Assembly (NCBI GenBank): GCA_030617105.1
Contig: JAUWWC010000001.1
Location: forward strand, 4,759 to 68,758
Reading direction: 5' to 3'
DNA from: Candidatus Nealsonbacteria bacterium
GTDB taxonomy: Bacteria; Patescibacteriota; Minisyncoccia; Minisyncoccales; GWA2-38-27
Length of the DNA stretch: 64,000 nt
In this document: in pieces, positions 2,815-40,095 of the stretch
Position numbering within the stretch: position 1 is the stretch's first letter
Layout of the letters: every line of letters starts with the position of its first letter
The notes under the pieces: generated by a model
What the model was told of the DNA's origin: nothing
What the model saw: only the letters and a program-made list of their open reading frames with translations
Databases searched by the model: none
Position numbers and translations under genes: made by a program

Positions 2815-3321
2815 ATGTTTATTCAAAAAAGACAATTTAGAAGAAGAACATTTGAAAAGAAAAAAGAAGAGTTTGACTCAAAACTCTTGGATTTGGCGCG
2901 TGTCACCCGGGTAACAGCTGGTGGTCGACGTCTTCGCTTTCGGGCAGCAATGGTGATTGGAGACAAGAAAGCAAGAGTTGGTTTTGGAATAGCTAAAGGA
3001 AAAGATGTTGCTCAAGCAGTAGAAAAAGCAACCAGAAAGGCTAAGAAAAACTTGATTAAGGTCCTAATTGTGAATGAGACAATTCCCCATCCAGTAGAAG
3101 CAAAATTTGGAGCAGCCAGAGTTATGTTAAAACCTCAAAGGAAAGGGAGAGGATTGGTAGCAGGAGGAACCATCCGGATTATCTGCACTTTGGCTGGGAT
3201 AAAGAACATTTCTTCAAAAATTATTGGTAGAACAGGAAACAAAATTAATAATGCTAAAGCTACAATTAAAGCGTTAAAAGAATTAAAACATGCAGATACA
3301 TCAACTAAAACCAAAACATAA
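2815..3321 (+). CDS. rpsE: 30S ribosomal protein S5
   Basis: LLDLARVTRVTAGGRRLRFRAAMVIGD S5 dsRBD signature. Confidence 0.85.
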   Translation: MFIQKRQFRRRTFEKKKEEFDSKLLDLARVTRVTAGGRRLRFRAAMVIGDKKARVGFGIAKGKDVAQAVEKATRKAKKNLIKVLIVNETIPHPVEAKFGAARVMLKPQRKGRGLVAGGTIRIICTLAGIKNISSKIIGRTGNKINNAKATIKALKELKHADTSTKTKT

Positions 3322-16724: not shown

Positions 16725-17200
16725 TGGAAAAAGCTAAAAAAACTAAAACAAAAAAGAAGACAAGTAGTAAAAAGAAAGTTGAGAAACGCAAAAAGCCAAG
16801 AGCTAAACCAGCTAAGTATTTTGAAGCAGTTGGCAGGAGAAAAACATCTGTGGCTCGGGTTCGGCTTTTTACTCAGGGAGATAAAACAATTATGATTAAT
16901 GGAAAATCGTATAAAGAATATTTTCCTGGTTTAGAGCTTCAGCAGATTGTAGATACTGCTTTAGATAAAATGAAAGCTCTTGATAAGTTTATGGTTTCAG
17001 CTAAGGTAAAAGGGGGAGGAGTTCATTCTCAAGCTGAAGCTGTTAGGCATGGAATTTCCAGGGCTCTTGTGAAGTTTAATCCTGAGTTTCGCAAACGGCT
17101 TAGGCGAGCTGGATATTTAACCCGTGATCCCAGAATGCGGGAAAGAAAGAAATTCGGATTAAAGCGCGCCCGCAGAGGCCCGCAATGGTCTAAGAGATAA
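16724..17200 (+). CDS. rpsI: 30S ribosomal protein S9 with ~30-aa Lys-rich N-terminal extension
   Basis: AVGRRKTSVARV...RDPRMRERKK...; K-rich N-terminus. Confidence 0.85.
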   Translation: MEKAKKTKTKKKTSSKKKVEKRKKPRAKPAKYFEAVGRRKTSVARVRLFTQGDKTIMINGKSYKEYFPGLELQQIVDTALDKMKALDKFMVSAKVKGGGVHSQAEAVRHGISRALVKFNPEFRKRLRRAGYLTRDPRMRERKKFGLKRARRGPQWSKR

Positions 17201-17206
17201 TAAAAA

Positions 17207-17240
17207 ATCCCTCTGAAAATCAGGGGGATTTTTGCTTTTT
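17207..17240 (+). terminator. rho-independent terminator after rpsI
   Basis: TCCCTCTG...CAGGGGGA stem followed by TTTTTGCTTTTTT. Confidence 0.6.
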
Positions 17241-17252
17241 TACTGCTTTTTA

Positions 17253-17615
17253 CTACTCTCTGTTGAATTTATATTTGATTTTGCATTGTTGGGCTCTAAA
17301 ACGATTTAGATGTTTAAATCCTGCAGGTAAATCTGATTCCAGTGTTTCTCCATTGAAGCTTAAATCAACAGGATATATACAAGCGACTTCCCAAGTTTTT
17401 GCTTGTGGGTTCTCTTGTACACAGAAAGAAAGATTGTGTTTTTGGCCCAAATCAAGAATCAGAACAGATACATCAACTACACCTTCACAACGTTTCATCG
17501 TTCTAATATTGAGCCCTTTTTTACAAGGAAGGCCAACTTGATGAGCAAATTGAAGTGCGAAGTCAACAGCTGTTAGATCTATTGCCATAACATCGGTGTT
17601 TCTAATAGAATTCAT
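17253..17615 (-). CDS. hypothetical protein (120 aa), start MNSIRNTDV with strong SD AGGAGGTG
   Basis: ORF plus canonical RBS 5 nt upstream; no family recognised. Confidence 0.5.
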   Translation of the reverse strand: MNSIRNTDVMAIDLTAVDFALQFAHQVGLPCKKGLNIRTMKRCEGVVDVSVLILDLGQKHNLSFCVQENPQAKTWEVACIYPVDLSFNGETLESDLPAGFKHLNRFRAQQCKIKYKFNRE

Positions 17616-17725
17616 TTTACACCTCCTGGGCATCACGCCCAATTTACTGCCATCACGGCAGAAAGGTTAATAATGTGGTTTGAAACGAACTAATACTACT
17701 TACAGTATACACCCATATTTAGTTT

Positions 17726-17778
17726 TTGTCAAGAGCTGGTGCTGGGGATTTGACCTTTGTTTATAAATAGATTAAAAT
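17726..17778. promoter_or_regulatory. divergent promoter pair with palindromic -35s (TTGTCAA...TTGACC); plus-strand -10 TAAAAT 17773-17778 gives near-leaderless start for the Cas4-like gene; minus-strand TTGACA-N17-TATACT for the 120-aa gene
   Basis: Hexamers and spacing read directly. Confidence 0.45.
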
Positions 17779-17786
17779 GATATTGT

Positions 17787-18470
17787 ATGTTAAAAGAAAT
17801 TATTGATAAATATTATTTGGATAGGCAGAGGAATAAAGAACAGCGTCATTTTTATATCAGTGACGCTGGCAAGTGTTCTCGGGCAGTGTTTTTTAAATTT
17901 AAAAACGCTCCCAGAAAAGAAATGGGAGCAAATATCTTGAGATTATTTGATCATGGAGACCATATGCACAAGCTTATAATGAAGTCTTTATTAAGCACTA
18001 GAGATATTCATGTCGTGGCTTCTGAAGTAAATATTGCTCCACAAGAGATAATTTCAGGCAGAGCCGACGCCATAATTAGTGATGGAAAGCAACTCTATGT
18101 TTTAGACATTAAAAGCATGAATAGTATGATTTTCAGAAATTTGATACAGGCAAAAGAGGAAAACGTTGAGCAGCTTCAATTATACTTGCATTATTTTAAA
18201 ATACCTAAGGGAATCCTGCTTTATGTTGATAAAGATAAGTTAGAGCTGAAAGAGTTTATAGTAAGCTATAATCAAATCCAAGCAGAAAGTCTTTTGAAAC
18301 AGTTAACTGTTCTTAAAAAACAAATTGATTCTAACACTATTCCTTCACGTCTTGCCGATTATCCAGATGGTTGGCAGTGTAATTATTGCCAGTTTAGAGA
18401 AATCTGTGATATGGGAGCTCCAGATGAAATGAAATGGGACGATTTTAAACAAAAAATAGAGTCTCAATAA
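17787..18470 (+). CDS. Cas4-like / RecB-family PD-(D/E)xK nuclease with 4-Cys Fe-S cluster signature (DUF83-like), stand-alone
   Basis: N-terminal Cys (SDAGKCSR), GRADAII (motif II), VLDIKS (D-x-K), QLQLY (QxxxY), C-terminal CNYCQFREIC (Cx2Cx5C). Confidence 0.6.
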   Translation: MLKEIIDKYYLDRQRNKEQRHFYISDAGKCSRAVFFKFKNAPRKEMGANILRLFDHGDHMHKLIMKSLLSTRDIHVVASEVNIAPQEIISGRADAIISDGKQLYVLDIKSMNSMIFRNLIQAKEENVEQLQLYLHYFKIPKGILLYVDKDKLELKEFIVSYNQIQAESLLKQLTVLKKQIDSNTIPSRLADYPDGWQCNYCQFREICDMGAPDEMKWDDFKQKIESQ

Positions 18471-18533: not shown

Positions 18534-18660
18534 TTGACAAGGTTCTTTAATAGGGGTTTAATGCATTAGAGACAAGATGGTCTTGTTTCAAGGTGTAAAG
18601 TTCTTTGAAAATTGAAAAAGTAAAAAAAACAGAAATTTTAGAAAAGAAAGGAGAATAGAA
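18534..18660 (+). promoter_or_regulatory. conserved promoter + 5'-UTR hairpin element, copy 1 (TTGACA-N17-TTTAAT; hairpin ACAAGA-TGG-TCTTGT at 18572-18586; AATTGAAA...AGGAG before ATG)
   Basis: Shared with copies at 22931-23017 and 25777-25864; stem sequences differ but stay complementary. Confidence 0.5.
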
Positions 18661-19623
18661 ATGGAAAAAAGAATAATGGCAAGAAATATTGCATGGTTTT
18701 GTGTTTTGCTTGCTGTATTAGGTAGTTTGATTTGGTTCAATAATCTTAGTATAGCTTTGCAATGGAATCCAAAAGCAGGTCATGGATTTGAATATCATGG
18801 TCCAATCTCTTATTTTGATCGTTTTGCAGTAGATTTTTCTACAGTTAGCACTCTTGTACCTTTTTTTGGGATGTGCCTTATTGCAAGAGGATTTTTCAGT
18901 ATTGCTAAAGCCAAAGAAAAGACTAATTGTTCAAAGGTCTTTCCATTTTTTGTGAATTACGAACGTATTATGGTTGCCTTAGGATTGATGGGAACGGTCT
19001 GGGGGCTTATTATGATTGGGTATTACCCATCTGAACAAGTCCAAATGTCACAGTTGATAAATTGTTTGAGAACCGCTCTTTATTCAACTTTAATTGCCTT
19101 GATTTGGGTGTTTCTTATTGTTATACCACTTAGATATAGTATGCAGCGAGCTTATAGAAGTATTTCTGGTTACCAGGTCTTAAAACCTAATGAGACTATT
19201 ATTTCCCTTTTAGGAGACCTCAGTTCAGCAGCTTCAGGCCTTACTGAGACCATAAATGAAACCAGTAGTACTTTTAGCCAGCTTAAGAATGAAGTCTCAG
19301 GAGCTAAAAAGGAATTTCAAGAAGTTGATAAGTTGATAGCAGAGATCAAAGGTAAGGCTGAAGGTGTATTTGATAAAGCTCAGGAGTCCTTTAACCAGAT
19401 AAGTTCTGGATCTCGGGCTTGGCAGCGAGCTGCAGAAAAACAGCAAAAAGCTGCTGAGGCGCAAGAAGCATTTTTCCAGCAATTAACCAATGAGTTGGAC
19501 AAAGTAATAAAAGAAAGGGATGAATTAAAAGGAAAATTAGACCAAACAAAACAAGAATTAGTTGAAGTAAAAAGCAAATTCCGTAGATTAAGGGATTTTG
19601 TTAGAGGAATAGTTGGAAAATAG
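18661..19623 (+). CDS. MotA/TolQ/ExbB-family proton-channel protein with ~165-aa C-terminal coiled-coil tail
   Basis: 4 hydrophobic segments; ALGLMGTVWGLIMIG matches TolQ/ExbB G-L-x-G-T-V-W-G signature; following TM resembles TolQ TM3; heptad-rich K/E tail. Confidence 0.6.
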   Translation: MEKRIMARNIAWFCVLLAVLGSLIWFNNLSIALQWNPKAGHGFEYHGPISYFDRFAVDFSTVSTLVPFFGMCLIARGFFSIAKAKEKTNCSKVFPFFVNYERIMVALGLMGTVWGLIMIGYYPSEQVQMSQLINCLRTALYSTLIALIWVFLIVIPLRYSMQRAYRSISGYQVLKPNETIISLLGDLSSAASGLTETINETSSTFSQLKNEVSGAKKEFQEVDKLIAEIKGKAEGVFDKAQESFNQISSGSRAWQRAAEKQQKAAEAQEAFFQQLTNELDKVIKERDELKGKLDQTKQELVEVKSKFRRLRDFVRGIVGK

Positions 19624-19636
19624 AAAGGAGCAAAAA

Positions 19637-20503
19637 ATGGAAGATTTATTAGAACGGGTAGGAACACTTTTTGGTGCTGAAAAAGAGGAAGAAGTGTCTA
19701 CGGCTGAAACTTTTGAGTTATTGTGTCAGATTGCTTTGGCTCTACTAATAATCTTTGTTATGGCTAATACTATTTTTAGAGGTAGAGCTCAGGCACAGAT
19801 TGATGAAAGTAGAGGTAGGCAAGGTGTTCTTGAAGATGAAAATAGAAGATTTAGACAAGCAGATCCAAATATTGCAAGCTATGAGAGAGCAATGATGGAT
19901 GTACAAAAACAGAAGCTTCTTTTGGCATTAGAAAAGATTGAAAATACCCTTCGTGATGATTTCGGGATTGATCATTTTGCACCAAAAGATCGCAGTACTC
20001 ATGAAAGTAAGTATTTAATGAACGATCTTCTTTCAGGGGAAAAAGTAATTAATGAGCGGTTTAAACAAGCTTGTATTATTGCTAAACAAGTTTTCTTAGA
20101 CAGAAAAAAATTGCGACAGAACTGGTGTGATAGGATACCTTTGGTTGAGCCAGGATTAGTATTTGATAGTACTCCAGAAAAACAATCAATTATTACAAAC
20201 CCTGAAGTTATAAGTCCGGAAAATGAAATATTGGTATTTCAGGAGATTGCTAATAGAATAGAAGGGATATATGCTGATTGTTGCGATATGCAGCGCATGG
20301 CCCTTTCTTATCTGCAGGAGTATTATTATGAACATACAGAATTACTAAAAGGAACTGAATTTGATAAGAACTTAAATAATGATGTATCTTCAGCATCAGA
20401 CAAGGAAAAACGAAGACTTATGTTGCAACGTAGTCAAGAATTGTATATGTATATAAAATCACTTTTTGAAAAACAGAATGTACCACTGCTTAGCGGAGTT
20501 TAA
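19637..20503 (+). CDS. single-pass membrane protein (N-in, TM aa about 25-45, ~240-aa C-terminal domain), candidate TolR/ExbD/MotB-like partner of the upstream channel
   Basis: Start at ATG 19637 with AAAGGAG SD, abutting stop of upstream gene; TM lacks canonical Asp but is preceded by Glu; topology only. Confidence 0.45.
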   Translation: MEDLLERVGTLFGAEKEEEVSTAETFELLCQIALALLIIFVMANTIFRGRAQAQIDESRGRQGVLEDENRRFRQADPNIASYERAMMDVQKQKLLLALEKIENTLRDDFGIDHFAPKDRSTHESKYLMNDLLSGEKVINERFKQACIIAKQVFLDRKKLRQNWCDRIPLVEPGLVFDSTPEKQSIITNPEVISPENEILVFQEIANRIEGIYADCCDMQRMALSYLQEYYYEHTELLKGTEFDKNLNNDVSSASDKEKRRLMLQRSQELYMYIKSLFEKQNVPLLSGV

Positions 20504-20536
20504 GCACGACGGTCATTAAGAAAGGAAGGTGCAAGA

Positions 20537-22885
20537 ATGAGATCCGCAAGAAAAAAACCTGTTATTACAATAGCTTTGTTTGTAGTTATCAGCGCCTTGC
20601 TCCCTGGAAGATTTTGCCTAGGGAGCAAGGGCGAATTATCAGCAAAAAAAGCTAATGCAAGATTGTATGCTAAGATGCATATTAATAAACTTTGCGAGCA
20701 AGCAAGAAAACAAGAAGTTGATGTTAATGATCTCTGTGAGAAAATGCTGCAGAATCCAGCTAAATATCAAAACAGAAGACAGGCCTGGGATAACTTAAAG
20801 CAGGAACAAACTCAGATGTTTACTGATTGGTATCAAAAGGAAGTGAAACTTGTTTTACAGGCAATTGACCGGAACTACTTTACTAAAGAAGAGCGAGATG
20901 CTTTTCTAAAACCTCTAGACGAAGTAGTTAAGGACTATCTTGATAAGAATTTTGGCAAAAGCCATACAGATGGAACAACAGTATTTGGCAAAGCAAGAAA
21001 AAAAGCTTATGAAAGCCAACTCAATAAGCTGACAAAAGATGTTTATCCCACAGAAAGCGAAGTTGATACAGCTGTGGCTAAAAGACAGCTCAATAACTTG
21101 CGGATTAAAATATTGAATCAGCTTATTAAAAAACAAAAAGAACCTGTTTTTTCAGAAAATGTAAGTACGCTTAGCAGCGATTTCGTTAATCCCATACTTG
21201 ACGATGCTAAAAAGCAATTAGAAAAACAAGGTTCAATTGTGACCGGTTCTTCTGGCGCTAGTTATGTTGTGCCGGAAGATATCAGGAATTTCATCAGCAG
21301 GGAGATTACTACTTATCAGAACAAGCTTAAGCAGGAAAAGCAGGGAAAAACAATAGCCAATAAGGTCTATAAGATGTTTCCTTCAGTTAAGAAGAAAGTT
21401 GATGATGAGGCAGGCAAAATCGCTATCAAAAGATTTCGCAATGCTATATCTGAAATGAATTTGTCAGTTGACAAGAAGGTTTTAAAAAAGCTGATAAGCG
21501 GGAGCTTATCAGTTCATGCTGACAAAGATAAAAGCTGGAGCACTTGCTTGAAACGTTTTCGACAAGATATTGTTAACAAAGCCATTGATAATCATGCAGT
21601 CAAGGCTCCAAAAGACAAACAATCTGATTTTCGCAACTTTCTGTCATCACTTATTTCAAACAGTGATCAATCTTGCAAAGATGCTATGAATAAACTGGTT
21701 GATAGAAGCTTGAAGCAGGAGTTTGATCGTATACGAAAAGAGATTGCTCAGCAGCAATTCAGAGATTTCTTTGGACCGCTTGAACAAGGTTCTTGGCCTT
21801 CTTCAGAAAAAGCAGATGAGCTGATTGACAAATGGTACAATAAATCAGTGAACATATCTGAATCTGAAGCTTTGAAAATGCCTGATGTTTCATCAAGGTC
21901 CTTTAATTCTAAAGACCTGCTTAAAGAGACCATTGAAATGGTTCGCGAAGCAGAAGAAGCAGGAATAAAAACAGGACTTGATGCTCTGAGGAGCCAGATG
22001 AGCACGGTTGAGAGACTTGAGTTTCAAGTCAAGAGCCAAATTAGAAATATGAGAGATCTCACTATTGAGAAGGTTATAGAGATTTACACACAAAAAGTAA
22101 ATTCATCTTGGTCTTCCAAGGATTATCCCCATCTTTTTACCCGAACTCAAAAGGAAATTAAAAGGCGAGCTAAGGATATTTTAGATTTAGAGATTGCTCG
22201 TCAGCGTCAGATTGCTAATGACAAAGCTAAAGCTGATAAAGCTCGAGCCGATGCTAAAGCCAGAGCTCAGCTTGAAGATAAAGGCAGGTCTGACATACTT
22301 GGCTTGGAAGATTCTGACAAGCCAGGAAAACCAGGTGGAGGAGGAGATCCTAATAAGTCAGGAAAACCAGGTGGTGGCACGCCTGATACTTTTGGCGGTC
22401 CTCCGGGGGGAAAAGGACCTGCAAAAGAACAAGAGGAACCGGGGGATCAAATGCCAGATGTTATTCTTGATTTTGGCTACGAAAGTGGAAAAGTTTATGC
22501 TGACATAATGTTTCCCAAAGAATCAAAAGACAAGCTTAGACTTTTTATGGATCTCAGTGTCAACCTTAATTCGTCTAACATGGTTATTGCTCGAAAGCTT
22601 TTTGCTGATTGGCTTAAAGACGCTGTCAAGAAAAGCAAAAAAGACCAGCAAGACATAAATTTCTATGTTTTTGCCCGAGTTTTTCACGGAAGTTCTGTGT
22701 TATACAGCATGGTTTATTATTTCAGAGAGTGCTTGATAAAAGCTTTAGAAGATACTGGTGATAAAAGAATAAAAATTCACTGGTATGACAGGCTTTTTTA
22801 TGGTTCTTCTGATATTGAGAAATACAGGGGTAAGCCTATTTTGCCTCCTAAGTTTGATAAAAAACTTATGCCGAGATTGGTATAA
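20537..22885 (+). CDS. large membrane-anchored or secreted protein with TolA/TonB-like architecture: N-terminal signal/anchor, ~600-aa K/E/A-rich alpha-helical region, Gly/Pro-rich spacer, ~150-aa C-terminal globular domain
   Basis: N-terminal hydrophobic segment; ANDKAKADKARADAKARAQ helical repeats; KPGKPGGGGDPNKSGKPGGGTPDTFGGPPGGKGP spacer. Confidence 0.5.
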   Translation: MRSARKKPVITIALFVVISALLPGRFCLGSKGELSAKKANARLYAKMHINKLCEQARKQEVDVNDLCEKMLQNPAKYQNRRQAWDNLKQEQTQMFTDWYQKEVKLVLQAIDRNYFTKEERDAFLKPLDEVVKDYLDKNFGKSHTDGTTVFGKARKKAYESQLNKLTKDVYPTESEVDTAVAKRQLNNLRIKILNQLIKKQKEPVFSENVSTLSSDFVNPILDDAKKQLEKQGSIVTGSSGASYVVPEDIRNFISREITTYQNKLKQEKQGKTIANKVYKMFPSVKKKVDDEAGKIAIKRFRNAISEMNLSVDKKVLKKLISGSLSVHADKDKSWSTCLKRFRQDIVNKAIDNHAVKAPKDKQSDFRNFLSSLISNSDQSCKDAMNKLVDRSLKQEFDRIRKEIAQQQFRDFFGPLEQGSWPSSEKADELIDKWYNKSVNISESEALKMPDVSSRSFNSKDLLKETIEMVREAEEAGIKTGLDALRSQMSTVERLEFQVKSQIRNMRDLTIEKVIEIYTQKVNSSWSSKDYPHLFTRTQKEIKRRAKDILDLEIARQRQIANDKAKADKARADAKARAQLEDKGRSDILGLEDSDKPGKPGGGGDPNKSGKPGGGTPDTFGGPPGGKGPAKEQEEPGDQMPDVILDFGYESGKVYADIMFPKESKDKLRLFMDLSVNLNSSNMVIARKLFADWLKDAVKKSKKDQQDINFYVFARVFHGSSVLYSMVYYFRECLIKALEDTGDKRIKIHWYDRLFYGSSDIEKYRGKPILPPKFDKKLMPRLV

Positions 22886-23017: not shown

Positions 23018-24655
23018 ATGAATAAAAGAATTTTCTTGATAATTGTTATACTTTTTCAGATAGGAAAAGTTAGTGTAGCTAATTATCCGCCAAGAGTTAA
23101 AATTCAGAATCCAACAAGTGGTTCAAAATTTAAACTTGACGAAGAAATTGTTTTTAGAGGAATTGCAGTTGATTTAGAAGATGGAGAATTACCAGAAAAA
23201 AATCTTACTTGGACATCTGATTTAGATATTTATATTGGTCAAGGTAATTCATTGACCTATAAGGGTCTTTCAGTTGGTCCTCATATTGTTATGTTAACAG
23301 CATTTGATTCAGAGGGTTCTGTAGGCAGAGATTCAGTTTTTATTACAATACAAGACCCTAAGATCACTAAACCTATTGTTAAGAAACCCAAAAAGGAACC
23401 TAAAACTGGACCTGAAGGACCTAAACTTGAAGAGCTTGAACCAGGGGCGCCATCTATTGAATTTCTTTTTGTGCCTTCTTTTCGCAGTTTCGAAGATCTT
23501 ACAGGCAGAGTATTGAGTGCTGACCCTAATAATTTTGCTGTTGCTGTTTATATTATGAAAGATGGTCTTTGGTGGAGTAAGCGGGTAGGCAAGATTAATA
23601 GAGAGGGCAGATGGATTTGTGATATTACGACAGCTGAACGTGATGAAGTAGCGCTTAAAATCCTTGTCTATCTTGTTCCAAGCGATTTTAAACCCCCGTT
23701 AGCTTCTGGCAATTTTCAGCTTTCTCATGAATTAGAGAAAAATAGTGTAGCAAAAATAGAAGTACTTCGGAAAATAAGAATGCCCAAGGTAACGTTACAG
23801 TCAAAAAGGGAGCCAGAAATCAAGAAGATCCGCAAAAAGCCAGAACCTAAAGGTCCAATAGAGGCATTGGGAGAGCTTTTGATTCGGTTGCTGCCTAAAG
23901 AAAAGCAAACAACAGAGACTCTGAAAAGATATCTCCCTTTAGCAGTTGGCAACAAATGGACCTATCAGAGAACCGTTTACAAGAGCGATGAAGTTTTTCA
24001 TTACAGAAAGCAAATTATTGAGAAACCTGGCTGGAATAGTCCCCCTCGAGGAGCTGTCTATTTTACCCTCGGCCGGACAATAGAAAAGATGCCCCAGAGT
24101 TCTCTAGAGACATATAGCATTTCTAATTCTACTCTAACAGACAAATTTGCATCCTGGGACGTAGAAATTGAAGGGACTATTCCTAGAGATGGAAGATACT
24201 CCTCACTTTATATTAAAGAGGAGCCAAATGTTAAATGGCTTTATGTTGATGGAGGTGTTTGGGAACTAATGCAAGGTGAATATTTAGGCGCTGAGACCAT
24301 AAGTCAGACTTGGCTAGCGGTCTTAGAGCCAGGGATAATAATTTCTGACTCAGCAAAAGAAGGGGAGATACCTTTCTGGGCAATAGGAGCAGTTTTAATC
24401 CCAGAAAAAATCACTACCCCGGCTGGAAAATTCTCAAGCTGCTTGAAGAATTGCACTATGATTAGAGGTCAAAATTTGAAAGAAGTATTATTAAAAGATA
24501 TGCCTCCTGAGTATTCAGAACAGGAAGATGGTTTTGGAAACTTCACGACCATATCTTTTTATGCGGAAGATGTTGGCTTGATCAAAGAGGTTCAGTATAA
24601 CTCCAAAGGGGAACTTGTATATGAATTAGCGTTAATCGAATATAAGGTAAATTGA
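23018..24655 (+). CDS. secreted multi-domain protein (signal peptide; Ig-like N-domain; domain shared with the GH17-like protein; C-terminal domain shared with the downstream paralog)
   Basis: RGRVLSADPNNFAVAVYIM...WICDITT aligns with 25865 product; PLAVGNKWTY and YELAL motifs align with 24778 product. Confidence 0.55.
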   Translation: MNKRIFLIIVILFQIGKVSVANYPPRVKIQNPTSGSKFKLDEEIVFRGIAVDLEDGELPEKNLTWTSDLDIYIGQGNSLTYKGLSVGPHIVMLTAFDSEGSVGRDSVFITIQDPKITKPIVKKPKKEPKTGPEGPKLEELEPGAPSIEFLFVPSFRSFEDLTGRVLSADPNNFAVAVYIMKDGLWWSKRVGKINREGRWICDITTAERDEVALKILVYLVPSDFKPPLASGNFQLSHELEKNSVAKIEVLRKIRMPKVTLQSKREPEIKKIRKKPEPKGPIEALGELLIRLLPKEKQTTETLKRYLPLAVGNKWTYQRTVYKSDEVFHYRKQIIEKPGWNSPPRGAVYFTLGRTIEKMPQSSLETYSISNSTLTDKFASWDVEIEGTIPRDGRYSSLYIKEEPNVKWLYVDGGVWELMQGEYLGAETISQTWLAVLEPGIIISDSAKEGEIPFWAIGAVLIPEKITTPAGKFSSCLKNCTMIRGQNLKEVLLKDMPPEYSEQEDGFGNFTTISFYAEDVGLIKEVQYNSKGELVYELALIEYKVN

Positions 24656-24777
24656 AAGGAGCGGAAAATGATTAAGAGAATTTTTCAAAAGAAAGGAGGA
24701 TTGAAACGAAAAGGATTGTAATTGTTTTAGAGAAATAGAAACAGAAACCCTTTAGGAAAACATGAAAGGAGAAAAAA

Positions 24778-25731
24778 ATGAAGACTCTACTAAAAAATGT
24801 AAAGTTAGTTATTTTGGTTGTTTTTGTGGCTCTGGCTTCTTTATTCTTTTTTGAAAGAAAGCCTAGTGAGGCTTCTAACCAGCCAACTGAGATCAGGATG
24901 AAAGAGCGAAAGACAGTAGAGAAAGCTACCACTACTGAAAATTTTATCCCCGGTACCTATGATCCAAGATTACTTATGCCCCTAGCTCTTGGAAATAGCT
25001 GGACCTACGGTTGGAAAAGTGCTGCTGTATCGACCTTAAAAGAAGTAGAATCCAAAGATAAGGCAATTTTTAGGGGTCTAAGCTGGTACTCATTTGGTGG
25101 AAAGAGTGTGCTGGCCAGATGCTATGGCTATAAAGCAAAAGCCCATAAGGAAACTTACACCCTTATCCGACAGGATGGCGATCACTATTTCTTTACTATT
25201 TCTATTGATCCCAAGGTACCTTCAGAACAGATACGCGATGGCAGATTTGAAGATTCTGTTGAGAATTGCTGGACCTGGTGGGACCTTAGGCAAGGCTCTT
25301 ACGGTTCAATGGGAATGACTGAGTCCATAAAACGGAATTGGGGTATCCATAGAGATTATCTTCTTGGCAAACAAGCTGAATTGCCAGATGATTTTCCAGC
25401 AGACCACCGCAACGCTATTCACATTGAGTTTACAGAAGGTGAGTGGGGCGATAGTTGGTTGGAATTTGCTTATTCTAAAAATCCCTGTAGATATGTATAC
25501 AAAACCATGGGTAATGAAGTTAAGGTAGCTGCTGGAACATTCAAAAACTGTATTGAAGCGATTGAGAAGGTTCATAAGGATGCCGAAGAGAAAAGCCCCC
25601 TGGTCTGGGAGACCCATATATTCTGGGCTCCTGAGGTAGGCAAGGTCTGGGAATACCAGAGGCTTGCTGATGGTACCATAACCTATGAGTTGGAGCTCCT
25701 AAAATTTGTTCCAGCCCAAAAGAAAAAATAG
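24778..25731 (+). CDS. secreted protein, paralog of the C-terminal domain of the 23018 product
   Basis: Signal/TM at N-terminus; PLALGNSWTY...YELEL shared motifs. Confidence 0.55.
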   Translation: MKTLLKNVKLVILVVFVALASLFFFERKPSEASNQPTEIRMKERKTVEKATTTENFIPGTYDPRLLMPLALGNSWTYGWKSAAVSTLKEVESKDKAIFRGLSWYSFGGKSVLARCYGYKAKAHKETYTLIRQDGDHYFFTISIDPKVPSEQIRDGRFEDSVENCWTWWDLRQGSYGSMGMTESIKRNWGIHRDYLLGKQAELPDDFPADHRNAIHIEFTEGEWGDSWLEFAYSKNPCRYVYKTMGNEVKVAAGTFKNCIEAIEKVHKDAEEKSPLVWETHIFWAPEVGKVWEYQRLADGTITYELELLKFVPAQKKK

Positions 25732-25740
25732 GCAAAATAG

Positions 25741-25776
25741 GTGTCAGATTTATTTTCTGGCACCTCTTTTTTTCGC
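25741..25776 (+). terminator. rho-independent terminator (GGTGTCAG...CTGGCACC stem with one G-U, then T9)
   Basis: Read directly. Confidence 0.6.
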
Positions 25777-25864
25777 TTGACAAAGCATTGATAAGATATA
25801 TGCTATAAAAGAGAGATAAGGCGGTCTTATCTCAAGATTAAGAACCTTAAAAATTGAAAGGAGA
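25777..25864 (+). promoter_or_regulatory. conserved promoter + 5'-UTR hairpin element, copy 3 (TTGACA 25777-25782; hairpin GAGATAAG-GCGGT-CTTATCTC 25813-25833; AATTGAAAGGAG)
   Basis: Aligned by eye with copies 1 and 2. Confidence 0.5.
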
Positions 25865-27766
25865 TTGAAAATGGAAAAGAGAGTCTTTTTAATGATTGTT
25901 ACGATAGTGTTAGTTTTGAATTATTTTGTTCCTGTTGTATGTGGAGCAGAATCTGTGCCTGCAATCGGGCTCACTTATGTGCCGAAATATGGCAGTACTG
26001 AGAACTTGCGAGGCAGAGTATTAAATGCCAATTCTAAAGATTTTGCTGTTGCTGTTTATATTATGGTAGATCGTTTTTGGTGGACCAAGCCTTATTGGGA
26101 CAGCCCGATAACAGAAATTAATGATGATGGAACCTGGGTTTGTGATATTACCACTGGCGGTATTGACGAGACCGCCACCAGGATTGCTGCTTATCTTATT
26201 CCAGCTGATTACAAGCCTTCTTTGATCAGCTGGAATTTTCAGCTTCCTCAAGATCTGGAAGAGAAAGCTTTAGCAAAAGCAGAGGCAAGGCGGGATGTAT
26301 TAGGCAAAGTGTCGATAATACCTAGAGTTGAAGCAGAGTCCAAGATAGATATCAGGGAAAGAGATGTTGATAAACTGAAAGGTGTATGTTACGGACCTTT
26401 TCGTGATAATGAGAATCCTGATATGGGCATCCTTCCGTTTCTTGATGAGTTGAATCCTGATATTGGGTTTATTCCCAAGGTAGCCAGGGCAATTAGGACA
26501 TATGGTTGTACCAATACGCTTGGTAATATTCCTGCATTGTGCGAGAAAATTGCTATAGACTGCTATCCCGGGGCTTGGCTTGGTAAGTACAAAGCAGAAA
26601 ATAGAGAAGAAATTGAAAGTTTCATCCAGATTGCTAATCAGAACCTCAATTGTGTTAAAGCTCTAATTGTGGGAAATGAGGTTCTGCTGAGAGAAGATAT
26701 GACCGGGGAAGAGTTGATTTTCTACATCAGGGAACTGAAAAAAACAGGAGTTCCTGTGACAACCGCAGACATATGGAGAGTTTGGCTCATGCACCCAGAG
26801 CTTGCCGATGAGGTTGACTTTTTAATGGTTCATATCCATCCCTACTGGGAAGGAATATCAATAGGGGATGCTGCAAATTATGTTATACAGCGCTGGAATG
26901 CCATGAAGAAACGTTTTCCCGGCAAAAGGATTGTGATAGGTGAAACAGGATGGCCCTCTGAAGGTAAAACAATAGGTAAAGCCATAGCCAGTCCAGAAAA
27001 CCAGGCAAGATTTTTTAAAGAGTTTACTCAGTTAGCTGAAAAGGAACGGATTGAATACTTCTATTTTGAGCTATTTGATGAACTCTGGAAAGATAAATTT
27101 GAAGGTAAAGCTGGAGCTCATTGGGGGATCTACAATTCAGATGGTTCATTAAAAGATCATATGAAAGATCTGATTCCTACCCAAGCCCTCGAAGGGATTA
27201 GCCGGCCTCTAAGAGAAGTTGCTAAAGTTAAGGTCAGTGCTCCTCTTATTGTTTACAGGGATGCTGGTTCAGAAGAAAATAGCTTCCAGCCATCGGGTTG
27301 GATGGGTGATAGCGAGTGCATAGATTTGGACAAGGCCTGTGAGATAAACCCTTATGCTGGTAAGACCTGTATCCGTATTAGCTTCAAAGCTGCTCGATTC
27401 CTCTCCTGGGGTTGGGCTAGTATTTATTGGCAGTATCCTTTAAACAACTGGGGTAAATATCCTGGCTATGAGCTGTCAGGAGCTAACAAGCTTAGCTTCT
27501 GGGCTCGAGGCGAGAAAGGCAATGAAAAAGCAGAGTTTAAGACAGGAGGGATTAGGAGTTGGGTTCCAACAGAGTTCCGTCGCGATTCCTTTGGTCCTGT
27601 CTCTACTGGCGTCATGAAACTTACTCCAGAATGGAAAAAATATATCATTGACCTAAAAGGTAAAGACATGAGTAGTGTGATTGGCGGCTTTTGCTGGACA
27701 ACTAATCGTTGGTGGAATCCCAAAGGTTGCACGATTTACTTAGATGATATTCAGTTTGAACCATAA
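25865..27766 (+). CDS. secreted glycoside hydrolase family 17-like (beta-1,3-glucanase-like) protein with N-terminal domain paralogous to the 23018 product and a ~200-aa C-terminal probable carbohydrate-binding domain
   Basis: KGVCYGPF, LIVGNEVLL (acid/base Glu) and IGETGWPSEG (nucleophile Glu) GH17 motifs; signal peptide. Confidence 0.6.
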   Translation: MKMEKRVFLMIVTIVLVLNYFVPVVCGAESVPAIGLTYVPKYGSTENLRGRVLNANSKDFAVAVYIMVDRFWWTKPYWDSPITEINDDGTWVCDITTGGIDETATRIAAYLIPADYKPSLISWNFQLPQDLEEKALAKAEARRDVLGKVSIIPRVEAESKIDIRERDVDKLKGVCYGPFRDNENPDMGILPFLDELNPDIGFIPKVARAIRTYGCTNTLGNIPALCEKIAIDCYPGAWLGKYKAENREEIESFIQIANQNLNCVKALIVGNEVLLREDMTGEELIFYIRELKKTGVPVTTADIWRVWLMHPELADEVDFLMVHIHPYWEGISIGDAANYVIQRWNAMKKRFPGKRIVIGETGWPSEGKTIGKAIASPENQARFFKEFTQLAEKERIEYFYFELFDELWKDKFEGKAGAHWGIYNSDGSLKDHMKDLIPTQALEGISRPLREVAKVKVSAPLIVYRDAGSEENSFQPSGWMGDSECIDLDKACEINPYAGKTCIRISFKAARFLSWGWASIYWQYPLNNWGKYPGYELSGANKLSFWARGEKGNEKAEFKTGGIRSWVPTEFRRDSFGPVSTGVMKLTPEWKKYIIDLKGKDMSSVIGGFCWTTNRWWNPKGCTIYLDDIQFEP

Positions 27767-30460: not shown

Positions 30461-31468
30461 ATGTTTATTAAGAAAATTGGCATTGATTTAGGAACCTGCA
30501 ATTCAGTGGTTTTTACTCCTAAAAAAGGAGTGGTTTTGACTGAACCTTCAGTAGTAGCAGTTACTCTTGCTGAAAACAAAATTCTGGCTGTAGGTCAAGA
30601 AGCAAAAGAAATGACTGGTCGAACACCTGATACGATTAGGATTTATAGACCTTTAAAAGATGGAGTAATTGCTGATTATAGAGTTACTGAAGCAATGCTG
30701 AGATATTTTGTTAAGAGAGCAGCAAGAAGTTTTAGGTTTTTTAAACCAGAGCTTTTAGTTGGAGTACCAGCTGGTATCACTTCTACTGAGAAAAGAGCAG
30801 TGATTGAAGCTGGGATGGCAGCTGGAGCTAAGGGAGTTTACGTTGCTAAAGAGCCAATTTTAGCTGCAATTGGGGCTGGCATTCCTATTAATTCTTGTTC
30901 AGGCCATATGATTGTTGATATTGGCGGAGGGACTTCAGAAGTAGCTGTGATTTCTCTTGGCGGGATAGTAACTTGCAGTTCTCTTAGAGTAGCTGGAGAT
31001 AAAATGGACCAGGCAATTTCCAATTACATCAAGAAGAAGTATAATCTGGCTATTGGTGAACAGACAGCTGAAGAGATAAAGATAAAAATTGGCACAGCTT
31101 TGCCAGAGAAGGAAGAGAAAGAAATGGAAATCAGGGGCAGGAATTTAATTTCTGGCTTGCCTCAGAACATTAAGATTAGTTCTAACGAGGTTTGTGAGGC
31201 AATTTCTGACCGGCTTGATGAAATTGTTCAGATAGTTAAGGCAGTTTTAAGAGAGACGCCTCCTGAGCTTTCAGCTGATATTATGGATAAAGGAATGATT
31301 CTTTCAGGCGGGGGAGCATTGGTTAGAAATATTGATGGACTTATTGCTCGGGCTACTGGAGTTCCTTGTTTTTTAGCTGAAGATCCATTGCTTTGCGTTG
31401 CAAAAGGACCAGGAGTAGTGCTGGAGAGTCTTGAAGCATATAAGAAGAGTATAATGACTAAAAAGTGA
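30461..31468 (+). CDS. mreB: rod shape-determining protein MreB
   Basis: IGIDLGTCNSVVF, DIGGGTSEVAVISLGG actin-fold motifs. Confidence 0.8.
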   Translation: MFIKKIGIDLGTCNSVVFTPKKGVVLTEPSVVAVTLAENKILAVGQEAKEMTGRTPDTIRIYRPLKDGVIADYRVTEAMLRYFVKRAARSFRFFKPELLVGVPAGITSTEKRAVIEAGMAAGAKGVYVAKEPILAAIGAGIPINSCSGHMIVDIGGGTSEVAVISLGGIVTCSSLRVAGDKMDQAISNYIKKKYNLAIGEQTAEEIKIKIGTALPEKEEKEMEIRGRNLISGLPQNIKISSNEVCEAISDRLDEIVQIVKAVLRETPPELSADIMDKGMILSGGGALVRNIDGLIARATGVPCFLAEDPLLCVAKGPGVVLESLEAYKKSIMTKK

Positions 31469-34343: not shown

Positions 34344-35588
34344 ATGAAACAGTCAAAACTTTTTTATAAAACAATGAAAAAAGCTCCAAAAGCAGCTGAG
34401 ATTGCTTCTCATAAGTTATTATTGAGAAGTGATTTTATTTCTCAACTTGCTTCAGGCATTTATACTTTTCTTCCTTTAGGATACAAGGTTCATCAGAAAA
34501 GAGAGAGTATTATTAGACAGGAAATGGATTCAATCGGAGGCCAGGAGATTTTTATGCCTTCTTTTCAGCCAAAAGAACTTTGGCAGAAAACAGGTCGTTG
34601 GGTCAATATGGATCCTCCTCTTTTTAAAATAAAAGATAGGCACAAGAAAGAGTTTGCATTAGGTTCAACCCATGAAGAAGTAATTACAGATTTAGTTAAA
34701 GATAGAATTCAATCATATAAGGATCTTCCTTTAGCTCTTTATCAGATTCAGAATAAGTTTAGAAATGAAATGCGTTTTACAGGAGGTCTTTTACGCGCAA
34801 GAGAATTTGTAATGAAGGACCTTTATAGTTTTCATACTGATAATAATGATTTAGAAAAGTTCTTTAATAAGGTTCTCAAAGCTTATGACAAAATTTATAA
34901 CAGATGTGGCTTGAAAGCTGTGAAAAGCGAAGCATCTGGAGGAGTGTTTACCAAAGAGAAAACCTATGAGTTTCAGGTATTGTCAGAAATAGGGGAAGAT
35001 AGAATAATTCATTGTGAAAAATGCAATTGGGCAATGAATTTAGAAAACATAAACAAAAACAAGATGCCTAAGAGGTGCCCAGAATGTAATGGTAAAGTAG
35101 TTAAGAAGAATTCTATTGAAGTGGGCCATACTTTTAAACTGGGAACAAAGTATTCCAAAGACCTTAATCTTTATTTCAAAGGCAAAAAGGGAGAAAATAG
35201 ATTAGTATTAATGGGATGTTATGGAATTGGCATAGGAAGGTTAATGGCAACAGTTGTTGAAATTAATCATGATGATAAAGGAATTATTTGGCCAGAAGAG
35301 GTGGCTCCTTTTCAGGTTCATTTAATTCAGATTGAGGATAATCAGAAAGTTAGAAAAGCAGCAGAGAAGCTGTATAAAGATTTACAAAACAAAGGAGTTG
35401 AAGTACTATATGATGATAGAACCGATAAGAGTGCTGGAGAGAAGTTTGCTGAAGCAGATTTAATTGGAATTCCAATTCGGCTGGTTGTGAGCGAAAAAAC
35501 ATTGAAAAAGAACTCTCTAGAGGTTAAAAATAGAGATAAAAATAAAGTATGCTTAATAAAATTTTCTCATATATCTCAAATAATATAG
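34344..35588 (+). CDS. proS: prolyl-tRNA synthetase (short form, with Cys4 zinc site)
   Basis: class II motifs, FRNEMRFTGGLLRAREF; CEKC...CPEC. Confidence 0.8.
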   Translation: MKQSKLFYKTMKKAPKAAEIASHKLLLRSDFISQLASGIYTFLPLGYKVHQKRESIIRQEMDSIGGQEIFMPSFQPKELWQKTGRWVNMDPPLFKIKDRHKKEFALGSTHEEVITDLVKDRIQSYKDLPLALYQIQNKFRNEMRFTGGLLRAREFVMKDLYSFHTDNNDLEKFFNKVLKAYDKIYNRCGLKAVKSEASGGVFTKEKTYEFQVLSEIGEDRIIHCEKCNWAMNLENINKNKMPKRCPECNGKVVKKNSIEVGHTFKLGTKYSKDLNLYFKGKKGENRLVLMGCYGIGIGRLMATVVEINHDDKGIIWPEEVAPFQVHLIQIEDNQKVRKAAEKLYKDLQNKGVEVLYDDRTDKSAGEKFAEADLIGIPIRLVVSEKTLKKNSLEVKNRDKNKVCLIKFSHISQII

Positions 35589-36601
35589 CCATTGACTTAG
35601 GAACTGCGAATTCTTTGGTTTATGTTCAGGGCAAGGGGATAGTTATTAATGAACCTTCAGTAGTTGCAATAAACAAGAAAACAGGCCAGATTTTGGCAAT
35701 TGGTGAAGAAGCTAAGAAAATGGTTGGCCGGACTCCAGCTCATATTGTAGCTACCAGGCCTTTGGTTGACGGAGTGGTTTCTGATTTTGAGGTTACAGAG
35801 CAAATGCTCAAGTATTTTATTGAGAAGGTTCACAAAAGAAAATTTATCCTAGGCCCCCGTCCTCGAGTTATTGTTGGTATTCCTTATGGAGTTACTGAAG
35901 TTGAGAAGAAGGCAGTTCGTGATGCTACTAAAAATGCTGGAGCAAGAGATGTTTTTTTGATAGAAGAGCCAATGGCAGCAGCTATTGGGGCAAGGTTAGC
36001 AGTTCAGGAAGCTGGCGGCAACTTTGTTGTTGATATTGGAGGAGGGACAACTGAAGTAGCAGTAATTTCTCTTGGAGGAGTAGTTATTGCCAAGAGCTTG
36101 CGCATTGCTGGAGATAGGCTTAATGAAGATATAATTCAGTTTGCTCAAGATGAGTATAAGTTGTTAATAGGAGAGAGGGGAGCTGAAGAGGTTAAAATTG
36201 GAATCGGCTCTGCTTATCCTTTAAAAGAAAAAAGAGAGCTTCCCTTGAGAGGAAGAAATCTAATTACTGGTCTGCCAGAAGAGATTTTGGTTAATGATGA
36301 AGATATTAGAAAGGCCTTGAGCAAGTCAGTAAAGCAGATTGTTACAGCTATAAAAACTACAGTAGAAGAAACCCCGCCTGAACTTTTAGCTGATATTATG
36401 GCAAAAGGGATTCATTTAGCAGGCGGTGGCAGTTTGCTTAAAGGATTAAGTATTTTAATCCAAGAAGAGGTGAAGATTCCTGTTAAAATTATTGAGGATC
36501 CAATGACTGTAATGGTTAGGGGAGCAGGAATGGTTTTAGAAGATCTTGATGGATTGCATGAGATATTAGCTGAGACAGAAGAAATGGAACCACCAAGATA
36601 A
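35549..36601 (+). CDS. mreB: rod shape-determining protein MreB, second paralog
   Basis: IAIDLGTANSLVYV, DIGGGTTEVAVISLGG. Confidence 0.8.
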   Translation: MLNKIFSYISNNIAIDLGTANSLVYVQGKGIVINEPSVVAINKKTGQILAIGEEAKKMVGRTPAHIVATRPLVDGVVSDFEVTEQMLKYFIEKVHKRKFILGPRPRVIVGIPYGVTEVEKKAVRDATKNAGARDVFLIEEPMAAAIGARLAVQEAGGNFVVDIGGGTTEVAVISLGGVVIAKSLRIAGDRLNEDIIQFAQDEYKLLIGERGAEEVKIGIGSAYPLKEKRELPLRGRNLITGLPEEILVNDEDIRKALSKSVKQIVTAIKTTVEETPPELLADIMAKGIHLAGGGSLLKGLSILIQEEVKIPVKIIEDPMTVMVRGAGMVLEDLDGLHEILAETEEMEPPR

Positions 36602-38908: not shown

Positions 38909-39190
38909 GGCCTGCGGGGTGGAGAAGTAGTATCTTGCGAGGCCCATAAACTTTTTGTGGCCCAGAGTAGTAATATTCTGCGGAAAAATTCTCTAAATTG
39001 CTGGAAAGCCCATAAGGGTAATCAGCAGCCAAGGTCGTCTAGGGCGACAAGGTTCAGAGACTATAATGGGAACTTCCTTTTTAAAAGGAAGATGGTATAG
39101 TCCGTTCCATCTAGAAATAGATGGCTAACATTAAAGAACCTCGAGACACAGGTGCAATTCCTGTCCCCGCGACTAGTATTCTTTAGAATT
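38909..39190 (+). ncRNA. candidate structured non-coding RNA of unknown class, downstream of a TATAAT box at 38903-38908
   Basis: ~280 nt without convincing ORF; multiple GC-rich local stems (GGGCC...GGCCC, CCCATAAGGG); identity not established. Confidence 0.25.
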
Positions 39191-39191
39191 T

Positions 39192-39977
39192 ATGAATTGG
39201 TCAATACAGGAAGAAAATAAACTTCGGGAACTTTATTTGAATACTTCACTTACTTTGAGTGAAATCGCCAAGAAGTTGGGACGAACTCCTCCAGCATTAA
39301 ATAATAGATTGGCCAAGATGAAAGTTAAAAGAAGGTTGACTCCAAATTCTAAACATCCTAAAAGAATAACCCCAGCTTTGGCAAGAATTCATGCTCATAT
39401 TTGTGGAGACGGATGCATTTATAGTTATCAAGCGAGAGATGATTATGGTTATTGGGCAAAATATCGAAAGAACACTATGCGTATTAGATATAATCTTAGT
39501 TATTGTAATACCAATAATGATCTTTTAAAAGAATTTAAAACAGATATTTATGAAGTGTTTGGGGTAAGAGGAAAGAAAATACATCAAAACGCAATTATTG
39601 TAGATTCAAAAAGGATTTGGGAATTTTTAAGAAATATGGGCGCGGGCGATTCGTTTAGTTGGTATATTCCAAAAGAAATTAGCAATGGTTCAAAAGAAGT
39701 AATGAAAAATTGGATTAGAGCATTTTTTGATGATGAAGCCTATTTTAATGATAGTGGTAGAATCAGAGTAAAATGTGTTAATAAACAAGGACTTAAACAA
39801 CTTACTAAAATGGTTAATAATTTTGTTCCTTGTAATCTTAGACCAAAGAGAGGTTCTTACTGGGGTAAAACTTTTTGTATAAGTATAAGCAAAAAAGACG
39901 CTCCAAAGTTTTTTTCGAAAATAGGATCAATTCGTTATAAGCCGGGGAGTAGAATGGTATCTAAGGCCGTCTCATAA
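39192..39977 (+). CDS. LAGLIDADG-family homing endonuclease-like protein with N-terminal HTH; 3' end runs into tRNA-Met
   Basis: HTH LTLSEIAKKLGRTPPALNNRLAKM; two LAGLIDADG-like motifs (AHICGDGCIY and RAFFDDEAYF); stop codon lies in the tRNA anticodon loop. Confidence 0.5.
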   Translation: MNWSIQEENKLRELYLNTSLTLSEIAKKLGRTPPALNNRLAKMKVKRRLTPNSKHPKRITPALARIHAHICGDGCIYSYQARDDYGYWAKYRKNTMRIRYNLSYCNTNNDLLKEFKTDIYEVFGVRGKKIHQNAIIVDSKRIWEFLRNMGAGDSFSWYIPKEISNGSKEVMKNWIRAFFDDEAYFNDSGRIRVKCVNKQGLKQLTKMVNNFVPCNLRPKRGSYWGKTFCISISKKDAPKFFSKIGSIRYKPGSRMVSKAVS

Positions 39978-40011
39978 GCGGTCAAAGTGGGTTCGATTCC
40001 CGCTCCCGGCA
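39941..40011 (+). tRNA. tRNA-Met-like (anticodon CAT) with short D-loop and short variable loop
   Basis: Hand fold: acceptor GCCGGGG/TCCCGGC, D-stem TAGA/TCTA, anticodon loop CTCATAA, T-arm GTGGG-TTCGATT-CCCGC, discriminator A. Confidence 0.5.
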
Positions 40012-40014
40012 CAT

Positions 40015-40088: not shown

Positions 40089-40095
40089 CATAGAT

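Follow-up and report, generated by a model that had tools for sequence, protein, structure and literature searches.

A conserved three-gene cassette with a TolQ/ExbB-type channel subunit and a glutamine at the axle aspartate position

The 64,000-nucleotide stretch of DNA analysed here (the window) comes from a Candidatus Nealsonbacteria bacterium (GenBank assembly GCA_030617105.1, contig JAUWWC010000001.1, positions 4,759 to 68,758 of the forward strand) and carries, at 18661-22885, one operon of three genes, named here A, B and C, that is read as encoding a three-part cell-envelope module. A first-pass annotation of this DNA had described the first two genes as a divergent ion-driven motor pair, that is, a channel subunit of the MotA/TolQ/ExbB type and a single-helix partner. 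The channel subunit stands, whereas the partner has a conserved glutamine where the motors of this lineage have their essential aspartate, and the actual unit is a triad rather than a pair, as an exported protein of about 600-790 aa almost always follows. The genes are laid out as follows.

18647-18653, + strand: Shine-Dalgarno sequence AAAGGAG of gene A, 7 nt before its ATG
18661-19623, + strand: gene A, 320 aa, four-transmembrane (TM) channel subunit assigned to the MotA/TolQ/ExbB family (Tol/Exb branch) and ending in a coiled-coil tail
19637-20503, + strand: gene B, 288 aa from ATG, a bitopic protein of an uncharacterised family, starting 13 nt past the stop codon of A
20537-22885, + strand: gene C, 782 aa, third conserved member of the cassette, starting 33 nt after B

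The open reading frames (ORFs) of 320 and 288 codons that had been described for A and B were confirmed. Since the three genes lie on the same strand with short gaps (13 nt between A and B, and 33 nt between B and C) and an AAAGGAG-type ribosome-binding site stands before every ATG, they are read as one operon, in front of which there is an intergenic spacer of 190 nt. The AAAGGAG Shine-Dalgarno sequence is found 6-7 nt upstream of the ATGs of both A and B, and the fact that B has its own site at this ATG favours the 288-aa form of the protein over a 296-aa form starting at a TTG.

Protein A contains, as had been annotated, four hydrophobic segments (approximately residues 10-33, 56-82, 103-121 and 132-157, according to hydropathy). 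Its Lys and Arg residues cluster at the N-terminus (which carries three of them and is probably inside), within loop 81-102 and beyond residue 157, which argues for an N-in topology with four TM helices and very short loops.

18688-18759, + strand: TM1 of A, approximately residues 10-33, by hydropathy; an additional N-terminal helix in comparison with TolQ/ExbB
18826-18906, + strand: TM2 of A, approximately residues 56-82, with the invariant D58, S60, T64 and P67
18967-19023, + strand: TM3 of A, residues 103-121, with LGLxGTVWG; T112 (18994-18996) aligns with TolQ Thr145
19054-19131, + strand: TM4 of A, residues 132-157, with RTALYST; T143 corresponds to TolQ Thr178, and T138 to TolQ Glu173
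19153-19620, + strand: cytoplasmic tail of A, residues 165-320, 156 aa in one coherent heptad register

The TolQ/ExbB-like signature that had been noticed in A, ALGLMGTVWGLIMIG (residues 106-120), falls within the third hydrophobic segment, and both hydropathy and the alignment to TM2 of TolQ place its GTVWG motif inside a TM helix. The profile PF01618 (MotA_ExbB), whose absence had been taken beforehand as the result that would speak against this family, matches residues 85-163 (E 1.6e-5, 25.1 bits, the gathering score being 22.9), and is also present as a precomputed annotation on 20 of 35 homologues. When a profile of 29 homologues of A was compared with known motor subunits, hhalign aligned it with residues 112-199 (TM2-TM3) of E. 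coli TolQ with a probability of 93.5% (E 2.3e-7) and with ExbB at 81%, whereas no similarity to MotA was found (0.15%). As the comparison of B with MotB yielded nothing either, both being at the level of noise, a flagellar stator was rejected. A search of the PDB sequences with the whole A profile was swamped by coiled coils (methyl-accepting chemotaxis proteins, designed coiled coils and spike HR1), with TolQ at E 0.003. Judged from these sequence comparisons, A belongs to the MotA/TolQ/ExbB family and, more precisely, to its Tol/Exb branch.

Although the A sequences are only 25-48% identical across the family, 29 of them share the invariant residues G47, D58 (the sole invariant acidic residue of the protein), S60, T64, P67, P95, L107-G108-L109, G111-T112-V113, G115, I117, G120, L132, T138-A139-L140, S142-T143 and W149. 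Both pore threonines are among them, and in the TolQRA and ExbBD-TonB structures the equivalent threonines form a polar ring round the essential Asp of TolR/ExbD (PMC12215075). A further likeness to TolQ and ExbB, beyond the profile matches and the GLxGTVWG signature, is the P-F motif before the inner pair of TM helices; no Pro is found at the position of A equivalent to P138 of TolQ, and P156, which aligns with TolQ Pro187 only if a 4-residue gap is allowed, is its probable counterpart. Unlike TolQ and ExbB, A has an extra N-terminal TM helix (giving a four-TM channel subunit like those of MotA and PomA) and almost no membrane-proximal cytoplasmic domain, with just a 20-residue loop in its place, as well as a long heptad tail; unlike TolQ, it has Thr at the Glu173 position. 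The Ser-Thr pair on its last TM helix presumably resembles the Na+-type filter of PomA, but A and B differ from MotA-MotB and PomA-PomB in lacking a torque-generating cytoplasmic domain, a plug, an OmpA-like domain and the Asp.

The tail of A had been annotated as a heptad-rich coiled coil of about 165 aa of the kind that ZorA-type proteins have. Its nature is corroborated and its length is corrected to 156 aa: the hydrophobic periodicity of 3.5 residues has a power of 4.76, compared with 0.22 +/- 0.21 for shuffled sequences (none of 2000 shuffles reached it), and being so far above chance it argues for a single unbroken heptad register. As one continuous helix, the tail would extend for about 23 nm. 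Its length varies from 55 to 257 residues across the family, and its sequence is poorly conserved.

Protein B is encoded by the next gene after A, adjacent to its stop codon or overlapping it, in nearly all loci. Its features are the following.

19718-19777, + strand: TM helix of B, residues 28-47, LLCQIALALLIIFVMANTIF, the only TM segment of the protein by hydropathy
19727-19729, + strand: Q31 of B, which aligns with ExbD Asp25 and TolR Asp23
19778-20500, + strand: all-alpha domain of B, residues 48-288, without known fold

The role of B as the partner of A is strengthened by its being the obligate neighbour of A in about 90 species and by the resemblance of its TM helix to those of ExbD and TolR, with which it shares an LLIIF core. 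In the hhalign comparisons, B QIALALLIIFVMA (LCQIALALLIIFVMA) lies on ExbD DVMLVLLIIFMVA (FIDVMLVLLIIFMVA) with E 1.2e-3 and a probability of 19%, and on TolR DVLLVLLLIFMAT (LLDVLLVLLLIFMAT) with E 7e-3 and a probability of 5%; the register is identical in both alignments, with Q31 on Asp25 and Asp23, respectively. Outside this helix, the domain of B (whose conserved residues include a QKQKLL helix, F142, C146, N196 and Q219) matches no known family or fold, in an analysis that included structure predictions for B and C. No ExbD/TolR-type domain, OmpA or peptidoglycan-binding domain or plug was found in it, in agreement with the annotated lack of an OmpA or peptidoglycan-binding motif. When 1.84 billion representative proteins were searched with a profile of B, just 153 relatives similar in size turned up, none of them bridging the gap to ExbD, TolR or MotB; no Pfam domain was present in 40 distant members of the family.

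B also differs from the known axles at position 31, in its membrane helix. Among 82 aligned sequences (the B of the window, earlier homologues and genome loci) this column contains Q in 74, N in 6 and H in 1, and among the 133 library representatives with a residue there, Q in 122, N in 8, H in 1, E in 1 and D in 1. The two acid-bearing relatives (P0123, with Glu, and P0224, with Asp) are the two most divergent members; the occurrence of an acid only in the most distant relatives hints that the Gln derives from an acid, and these two proteins could stand midway between the canonical axles, which bear the Asp, and the B family. The Asp in question has been described as universal in the MotA/ExbB lineage (PMC11946911; PMC9389320), the paper on the Zorya structure calls it "universally conserved and mechanistically essential", and its replacement by Asn abolishes function in MotB, ExbD, TolR and ZorB (PMC11946911). 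A literature search for a natural ExbD/TolR/MotB-type protein devoid of this Asp found no description of one. Therefore, despite its obligate adjacency, single TM helix and ExbD/TolR-like membrane segment, B fails the defining chemistry, and the pair is not filed as a canonical stator; in the same vein, the term "ion-driven" is not borne out, given that the canonical coupling residue is absent and a conserved Gln (rarely Asn or His) takes its position.

Could another acid of B do the work of the missing one? The first-pass annotation was right in that there is no Asp at the axle site, but it had pointed to a Glu at the membrane boundary, E27, which is not conserved (Gly in 58 of 82 sequences). 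The conserved acid is residue 24 (E24 in the window), which is D or E in 77 of 82 and lies seven positions before Q31, hence on the same face of the helix. MotB tolerates the change of its Asp to Glu, which counts in favour of an ordinary ion-driven stator pair with such a boundary acid as the substitute. However, E24 falls beyond the end of the hydrophobic span and two helical turns lower than the threonine ring, at what is the open cytoplasmic cavity in known motors; moreover, it is Q31, and not E24 or E27, that is in register with the Asp of ExbD/TolR, and the plug, peptidoglycan-binding or ExbD-type domain of a stator partner is missing from B. All this leaves the explanation improbable.

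A heavier alternative is that evolution has locked the motor: the ring and the axle would still form, with no ion flow or rotation, as a passive anchor across the membrane or a signalling scaffold, joining C on the outside to the tail of A on the inside. The occurrence of Q, N or H in place of the essential Asp throughout the B family, the dead phenotype of the Asp-to-Asn mutants of ZorB and its relatives, the absence of any other ionisable residue from the membrane core of A and B, and the near absence of a membrane-proximal cytoplasmic domain in A are all consistent with it. On the other hand, at the low sequence identities of this family one would hardly expect a static scaffold to keep T112, T138, S142 and T143 invariant together with a polar Q/N in B; and the invariant D58 of A is found at the outer end of TM2, a place to which cations are drawn in other motors. 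We regard the dead scaffold as less likely than a complex that is still active.

The active complex requires consideration of C and of the spread of the cassette. The two-gene unit first proposed turned out to be incomplete: A, B and C occur together in 8 of the 8 loci obtained by exact protein look-up (the window contig, a Brocadiaceae metagenome-assembled genome (MAG), a Desulfosarcina MAG and five further metagenome contigs). In contigs of GTDB genomes, with one genome per species, relatives of A are encoded at 93 places, and the 80 loci that were kept distribute among Kiritimatiellia (34), Verrucomicrobia (16), Lentisphaerae/Victivallales (14), Desulfosarcina (1) and unclassified genomes (15). 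The triad was found in most of these 80 species-representative genomes, and in about 90 species overall; A is almost always followed by a B of 230-290 aa and a C of 600-790 aa, often with overlapping stop and start codons. While a search for homologous pairs had been suggested for the Candidate Phyla Radiation (CPR), in the collections searched the family is largely confined to lineages of the Planctomycetes-Verrucomicrobia-Chlamydiae (PVC) group, rather than CPR. The genes flanking the cassette are unrelated from one locus to another (housekeeping genes such as those for LpxD, Obg, NadE, Nfo and FeoB), and no fourth gene conserved across all lineages was found.

The features of C, the exported partner, are these.

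20537-20626, + strand: N-terminal Sec-type signal sequence of C; its homologues have short, cleavable-type signal peptides
20627-22264, + strand: helical region of C, residues 31-576, the part common with the PVC homologues; predicted local distance difference test (pLDDT) of 80-95 up to about residue 420; invariant C337 and C380
22274-22447, + strand: linker of C, residues 580-637, K/A-rich and then G/P-rich, predicted to be disordered
22460-22786, + strand: C-terminal alpha/beta domain of C, residues 642-750, beta3-alpha-beta-alpha-beta, conserved in the clade of the window

All C homologues start with Sec-type signal peptides, and their being short and of this type indicates that C is exported and not anchored. 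In the AlphaFold2 model (pLDDT 69), residues 35-420 are confidently helical and helices continue to residue 576; no known domain or fold was recognised in it. The length of the B domain correlates more strongly with that of C (Spearman 0.88) than with that of the A tail (0.49).

The order of the cassette (channel, axle, long helical third protein) is that of TolQ-TolR-TolA and ExbB-ExbD-TonB, which raises the possibility of a Tol-Pal/Ton analogue, with A-B as the motor and C as the force transducer to the outer membrane. Besides the closeness of A to TolQ and ExbB, the architecture of C, in which a long helical part is joined by a K/A- and G/P-rich linker to a small domain at the C-terminus, recalls TolA. 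Nonetheless, C has a cleavable-type signal peptide instead of an N-terminal TM anchor with the SHLS motif, and neither Pfam nor the fold reveals a TonB_C or TolA_C domain in it, so it differs from TolA and TonB both in being secreted and in its C-terminus. B, for its part, has the Gln instead of Asp23/Asp25 and lacks the periplasmic domain of TolR and ExbD, and among the flanking genes examined there are none for TolB, Pal or a TonB-dependent receptor. In addition, the window probably comes from a CPR bacterium, and CPR bacteria are generally considered to lack an outer membrane. An analogue of this kind is accordingly quite improbable.

An anti-phage role had also to be weighed, since A resembles ZorA in the cytoplasmic heptad coiled coil that continues the channel and in the Thr/Ser polar filter on the inner helices. 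A Zorya-like defence system in which a ZorA-type tail would signal to effectors could further draw on a weak PADLOC match of A to ZorA2 (E 2.3e-6, 24.9 bits), which takes in the coiled-coil region, and on the Cas4-like PD-(D/E)XK nuclease gene just upstream in the window, at 17787-18470 (+ strand), between a ribosomal cluster and the cassette. Unlike ZorA, however, A has four TM helices instead of three, no membrane-proximal Ca2+-binding domain and a tail of about 155 residues versus about 500; unlike ZorB, B has neither the peptidoglycan-binding domain nor an equivalent of Asp26. PADLOC gave no match for B and only a weak and probably spurious one to REase_II (E 3e-4) for C, and there is no cytosolic effector (ZorC, ZorD, ZorE, ZorF or ZorG), the third product being secreted. 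The nuclease is not conserved beside the cassette at other loci, where the neighbours are housekeeping genes, and was rejected as its effector. Moreover, tblastn against plasmids and phages returned no match, on which ground an origin in a mobile element was rejected as well; the cassette was not found in defence islands or on mobile elements, and in the collections searched the family is largely restricted to PVC bacteria. With only the weak ZorA2 match in its favour, and B and C failing every Zorya feature, membership in Zorya was rejected, and a system of that kind is very improbable.

The reading that we tentatively favour, without holding it to be more likely than not, is that A-B-C is an envelope complex of the Tol/Exb branch and of 5:2 type, with an altered ion site, that is still active by a different chemistry. 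In it, by analogy to known motors, A and B would probably assemble with a 5:2 stoichiometry, five copies of A surrounding two B helices, so that Q31 of B would come to lie within the ring formed by T112 and T143 of A. The large domain of B would work with C outside the membrane, and the complex could in this way connect the extracellular C to a cytoplasmic bundle of coiled coils. Without the axle carboxylate, the canonical cycle of Asp protonation and deprotonation is impossible at the canonical site; yet the strictly conserved polar ring (T112, T138, S142 and T143 of A, and Q31 of B) suggests that the complex most likely still conducts an ion and turns or switches. The altered chemistry might consist of an uncharged Na+-type site or of a carboxylate provided from elsewhere (D58 of A, or D/E24 of B). 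Considered as a whole, A-B-C has the look of a branch of the bacterial ion-driven motors that has not been described before and whose chemistry is unusual.

There is a precedent for a 5:2 motor without an essential axle carboxylate. GldLM is the only one with an Asp-less axle, the protonatable residue being Glu49 of the pentamer subunit (PMC8986121), and in GldL-GldM and PorL-PorM the axle has, in addition, a long helical periplasmic extension. However, there is no sequence relationship with GldL or GldM (no GldL, GldM, PorL or PorM family is among the Pfam and NCBIfam matches listed at E <= 1, of which the best 25 per library were taken for A), and D58 of A is not mid-membrane but at the outer end of a helix that is probably peripheral.

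Several points weigh against the active complex. Both the 5:2 assembly and the contact between Q31 and the threonines are predictions made by analogy with known motors. The match of B to ExbD and TolR covers only the TM helix, with low hhalign probabilities to which composition could contribute, and a Gln at the site of the axle Asp may mean that the complex no longer conducts ions. The orientation of B is another of them. The "large external domain" of the first-pass annotation is not established; the count of flanking Lys and Arg residues points the opposite way and favours an N-out topology (the 15-residue flanks contain on average 1.35 of them before the helix and 2.75 after it, and 66 of 81 sequences have fewer before it). 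The positive-inside test, a crude one that also gives the wrong answer for E. coli ExbD and MotB, is contradictory and unreliable here, and the TM register with ExbD/TolR together with the B-C length covariation favours N-in; still, the length correlations of B, C and the A tail were computed without correction for phylogeny, and the domain of B has 0-1 cysteines in most members, so that nothing there speaks in favour of a periplasmic location. Finally, the GH17 linkage described below is missing from PVC loci: 33 dereplicated loci, mostly from PVC bacteria, showed no enrichment of similar proteins in their 110 flanking genes.

A bolder version of the active complex can be formulated as well, although with all its parts taken jointly it is rather doubtful. 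According to it, the family would represent a third chemical class of 5:2 motor, in which the axle carboxylate has been permanently replaced by an amide (Gln) and coupling takes place either through an uncharged Thr/Ser/Gln site (some transporters have comparable neutral Na+ sites) or by way of a GldL-like carboxylate of the pentamer (D58 of A). Such a motor would drive or sense the secreted partner of 600-790 aa, this partner would be tied to beta-1,3-glucan-active enzymes in one clade, and the whole would be a new envelope machine of PVC bacteria that a CPR lineage has also acquired.

The connection with glucan comes from the genes downstream of C in the window and in the loci of its clade (labelled L005, L090, L091, L092 and L093), whose A proteins are 30-47% identical to that of the window.

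23018-27766, + strand: three secreted proteins sharing modules, of 545 aa (Ig-like plus DUF3108-like), 317 aa and 633 aa (GH17)
L005, 12197-13489: protein of the same module family
L091, 11358-14622: protein-coding stretch of the same module family
L092, 11349-12641: protein of the same module family
L090, 43-648 and 8939-9850: proteins of the same module family

In the window the GH17 domain is recognised with E 2e-13. Relatives of these proteins follow C directly or within one or two genes in L005, L090, L091 and L092/L093, the GH17-linked ones having 430 aa in L005, 688 aa in L091 and 430 aa in L092/L093, with fragments in L090. Their modules are shuffled (an Ig-like N-terminal module, "AVAVYIM..WW.K", the GH17 catalytic domain, a C-terminal "GGFCW...YLDDI.FE" and a DUF3108-like module), and the combinations found downstream of the cassette vary between loci. 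The link to secreted GH17 beta-1,3-glucanases in this clade points to the handling of glucan in the envelope or outside the cell, and the GH17/Ig-like secreted proteins are probably a clade-specific accessory. Furthermore, a secreted protein of about 266 aa is encoded directly upstream of A in a small group of three related genomes (L016, L022 and L072); its GH16-like EIDIME motif, identified by eye only, makes it a candidate for a second, independent adjacency to a beta-glucan-active enzyme (of beta-glucanase type).

Some observations concern the rest of the window. The nuclease upstream of the cassette is a stand-alone protein with a C-terminal cluster of cysteines (PADLOC Cas4, E 1e-12; TIGR00372, E 1e-10, under the cut-off), and no CRISPR array or other cas genes are found near it. 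Upstream of it lie the ribosomal cluster S13-S11-S4-RpoA-L17-L13-S9, a strong terminator-like hairpin just downstream of the S9 gene (17203-17233, 14 pairs and a T-run), and, bounded by this hairpin, a region of about 550 nt (17200-17790) that has no Rfam match and lacks a convincing ORF, the sole candidates being two of 92 and 129 aa that are antisense to each other. The remainder of the window is of housekeeping nature (SecY, tRNA synthetases, MreB, GyrB, GatAB, DnaE). The S5 gene (2815-3321, + strand) overlaps the L15 gene (3290-3712, + strand), leaving no space for L30 between them, an order that fits CPR. The 90%-identity clusters of S13, MreB and SecY, too, each include an NCBI protein named "Patescibacteria group bacterium", so that the window probably belongs to a CPR genome. 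Two full-length MreB paralogues (30461-31468 and 35549-36601, + strand), 4 kb apart and both at about E 1e-136 to PF06723, stand in what is apparently a small, streamlined genome. An intergenic group I catalytic intron at 38938-39124 (+ strand; Rfam, 84.4 bits, E 5e-20) is followed just downstream by a 261-aa ORF (39192-39977), the end of which is overlapped by tRNA-Met/tRNA-Asp (39942-40089). Lastly, a ThyX-domain protein (53068-54693, + strand) has 541 aa, about twice the usual length, and is matched by the Thy1 domain in two stretches, the best of them at residues 338-502.

In all 5:2 motors that have been studied in the MotA/ExbB lineage, namely Mot, Pom, Exb, Tol, Agl and Zor, the mechanism rests on one Asp of the axle. 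Here, in contrast, there is a family of about 90 species in which the threonine ring of the channel is intact and a Gln is fixed at the position of that Asp. If ions were still moved, the protonation-cycle model would not be the sole way to run this architecture; if they were not, evolution would have made a motor into a static transmembrane connector. In either case, two protein families without known fold (B and C) are added, and the family opens a first way into an envelope system, so far uncharacterised, of three groups that are major degraders of polysaccharides in guts and sediments: Kiritimatiellia, Lentisphaerae and Verrucomicrobia.

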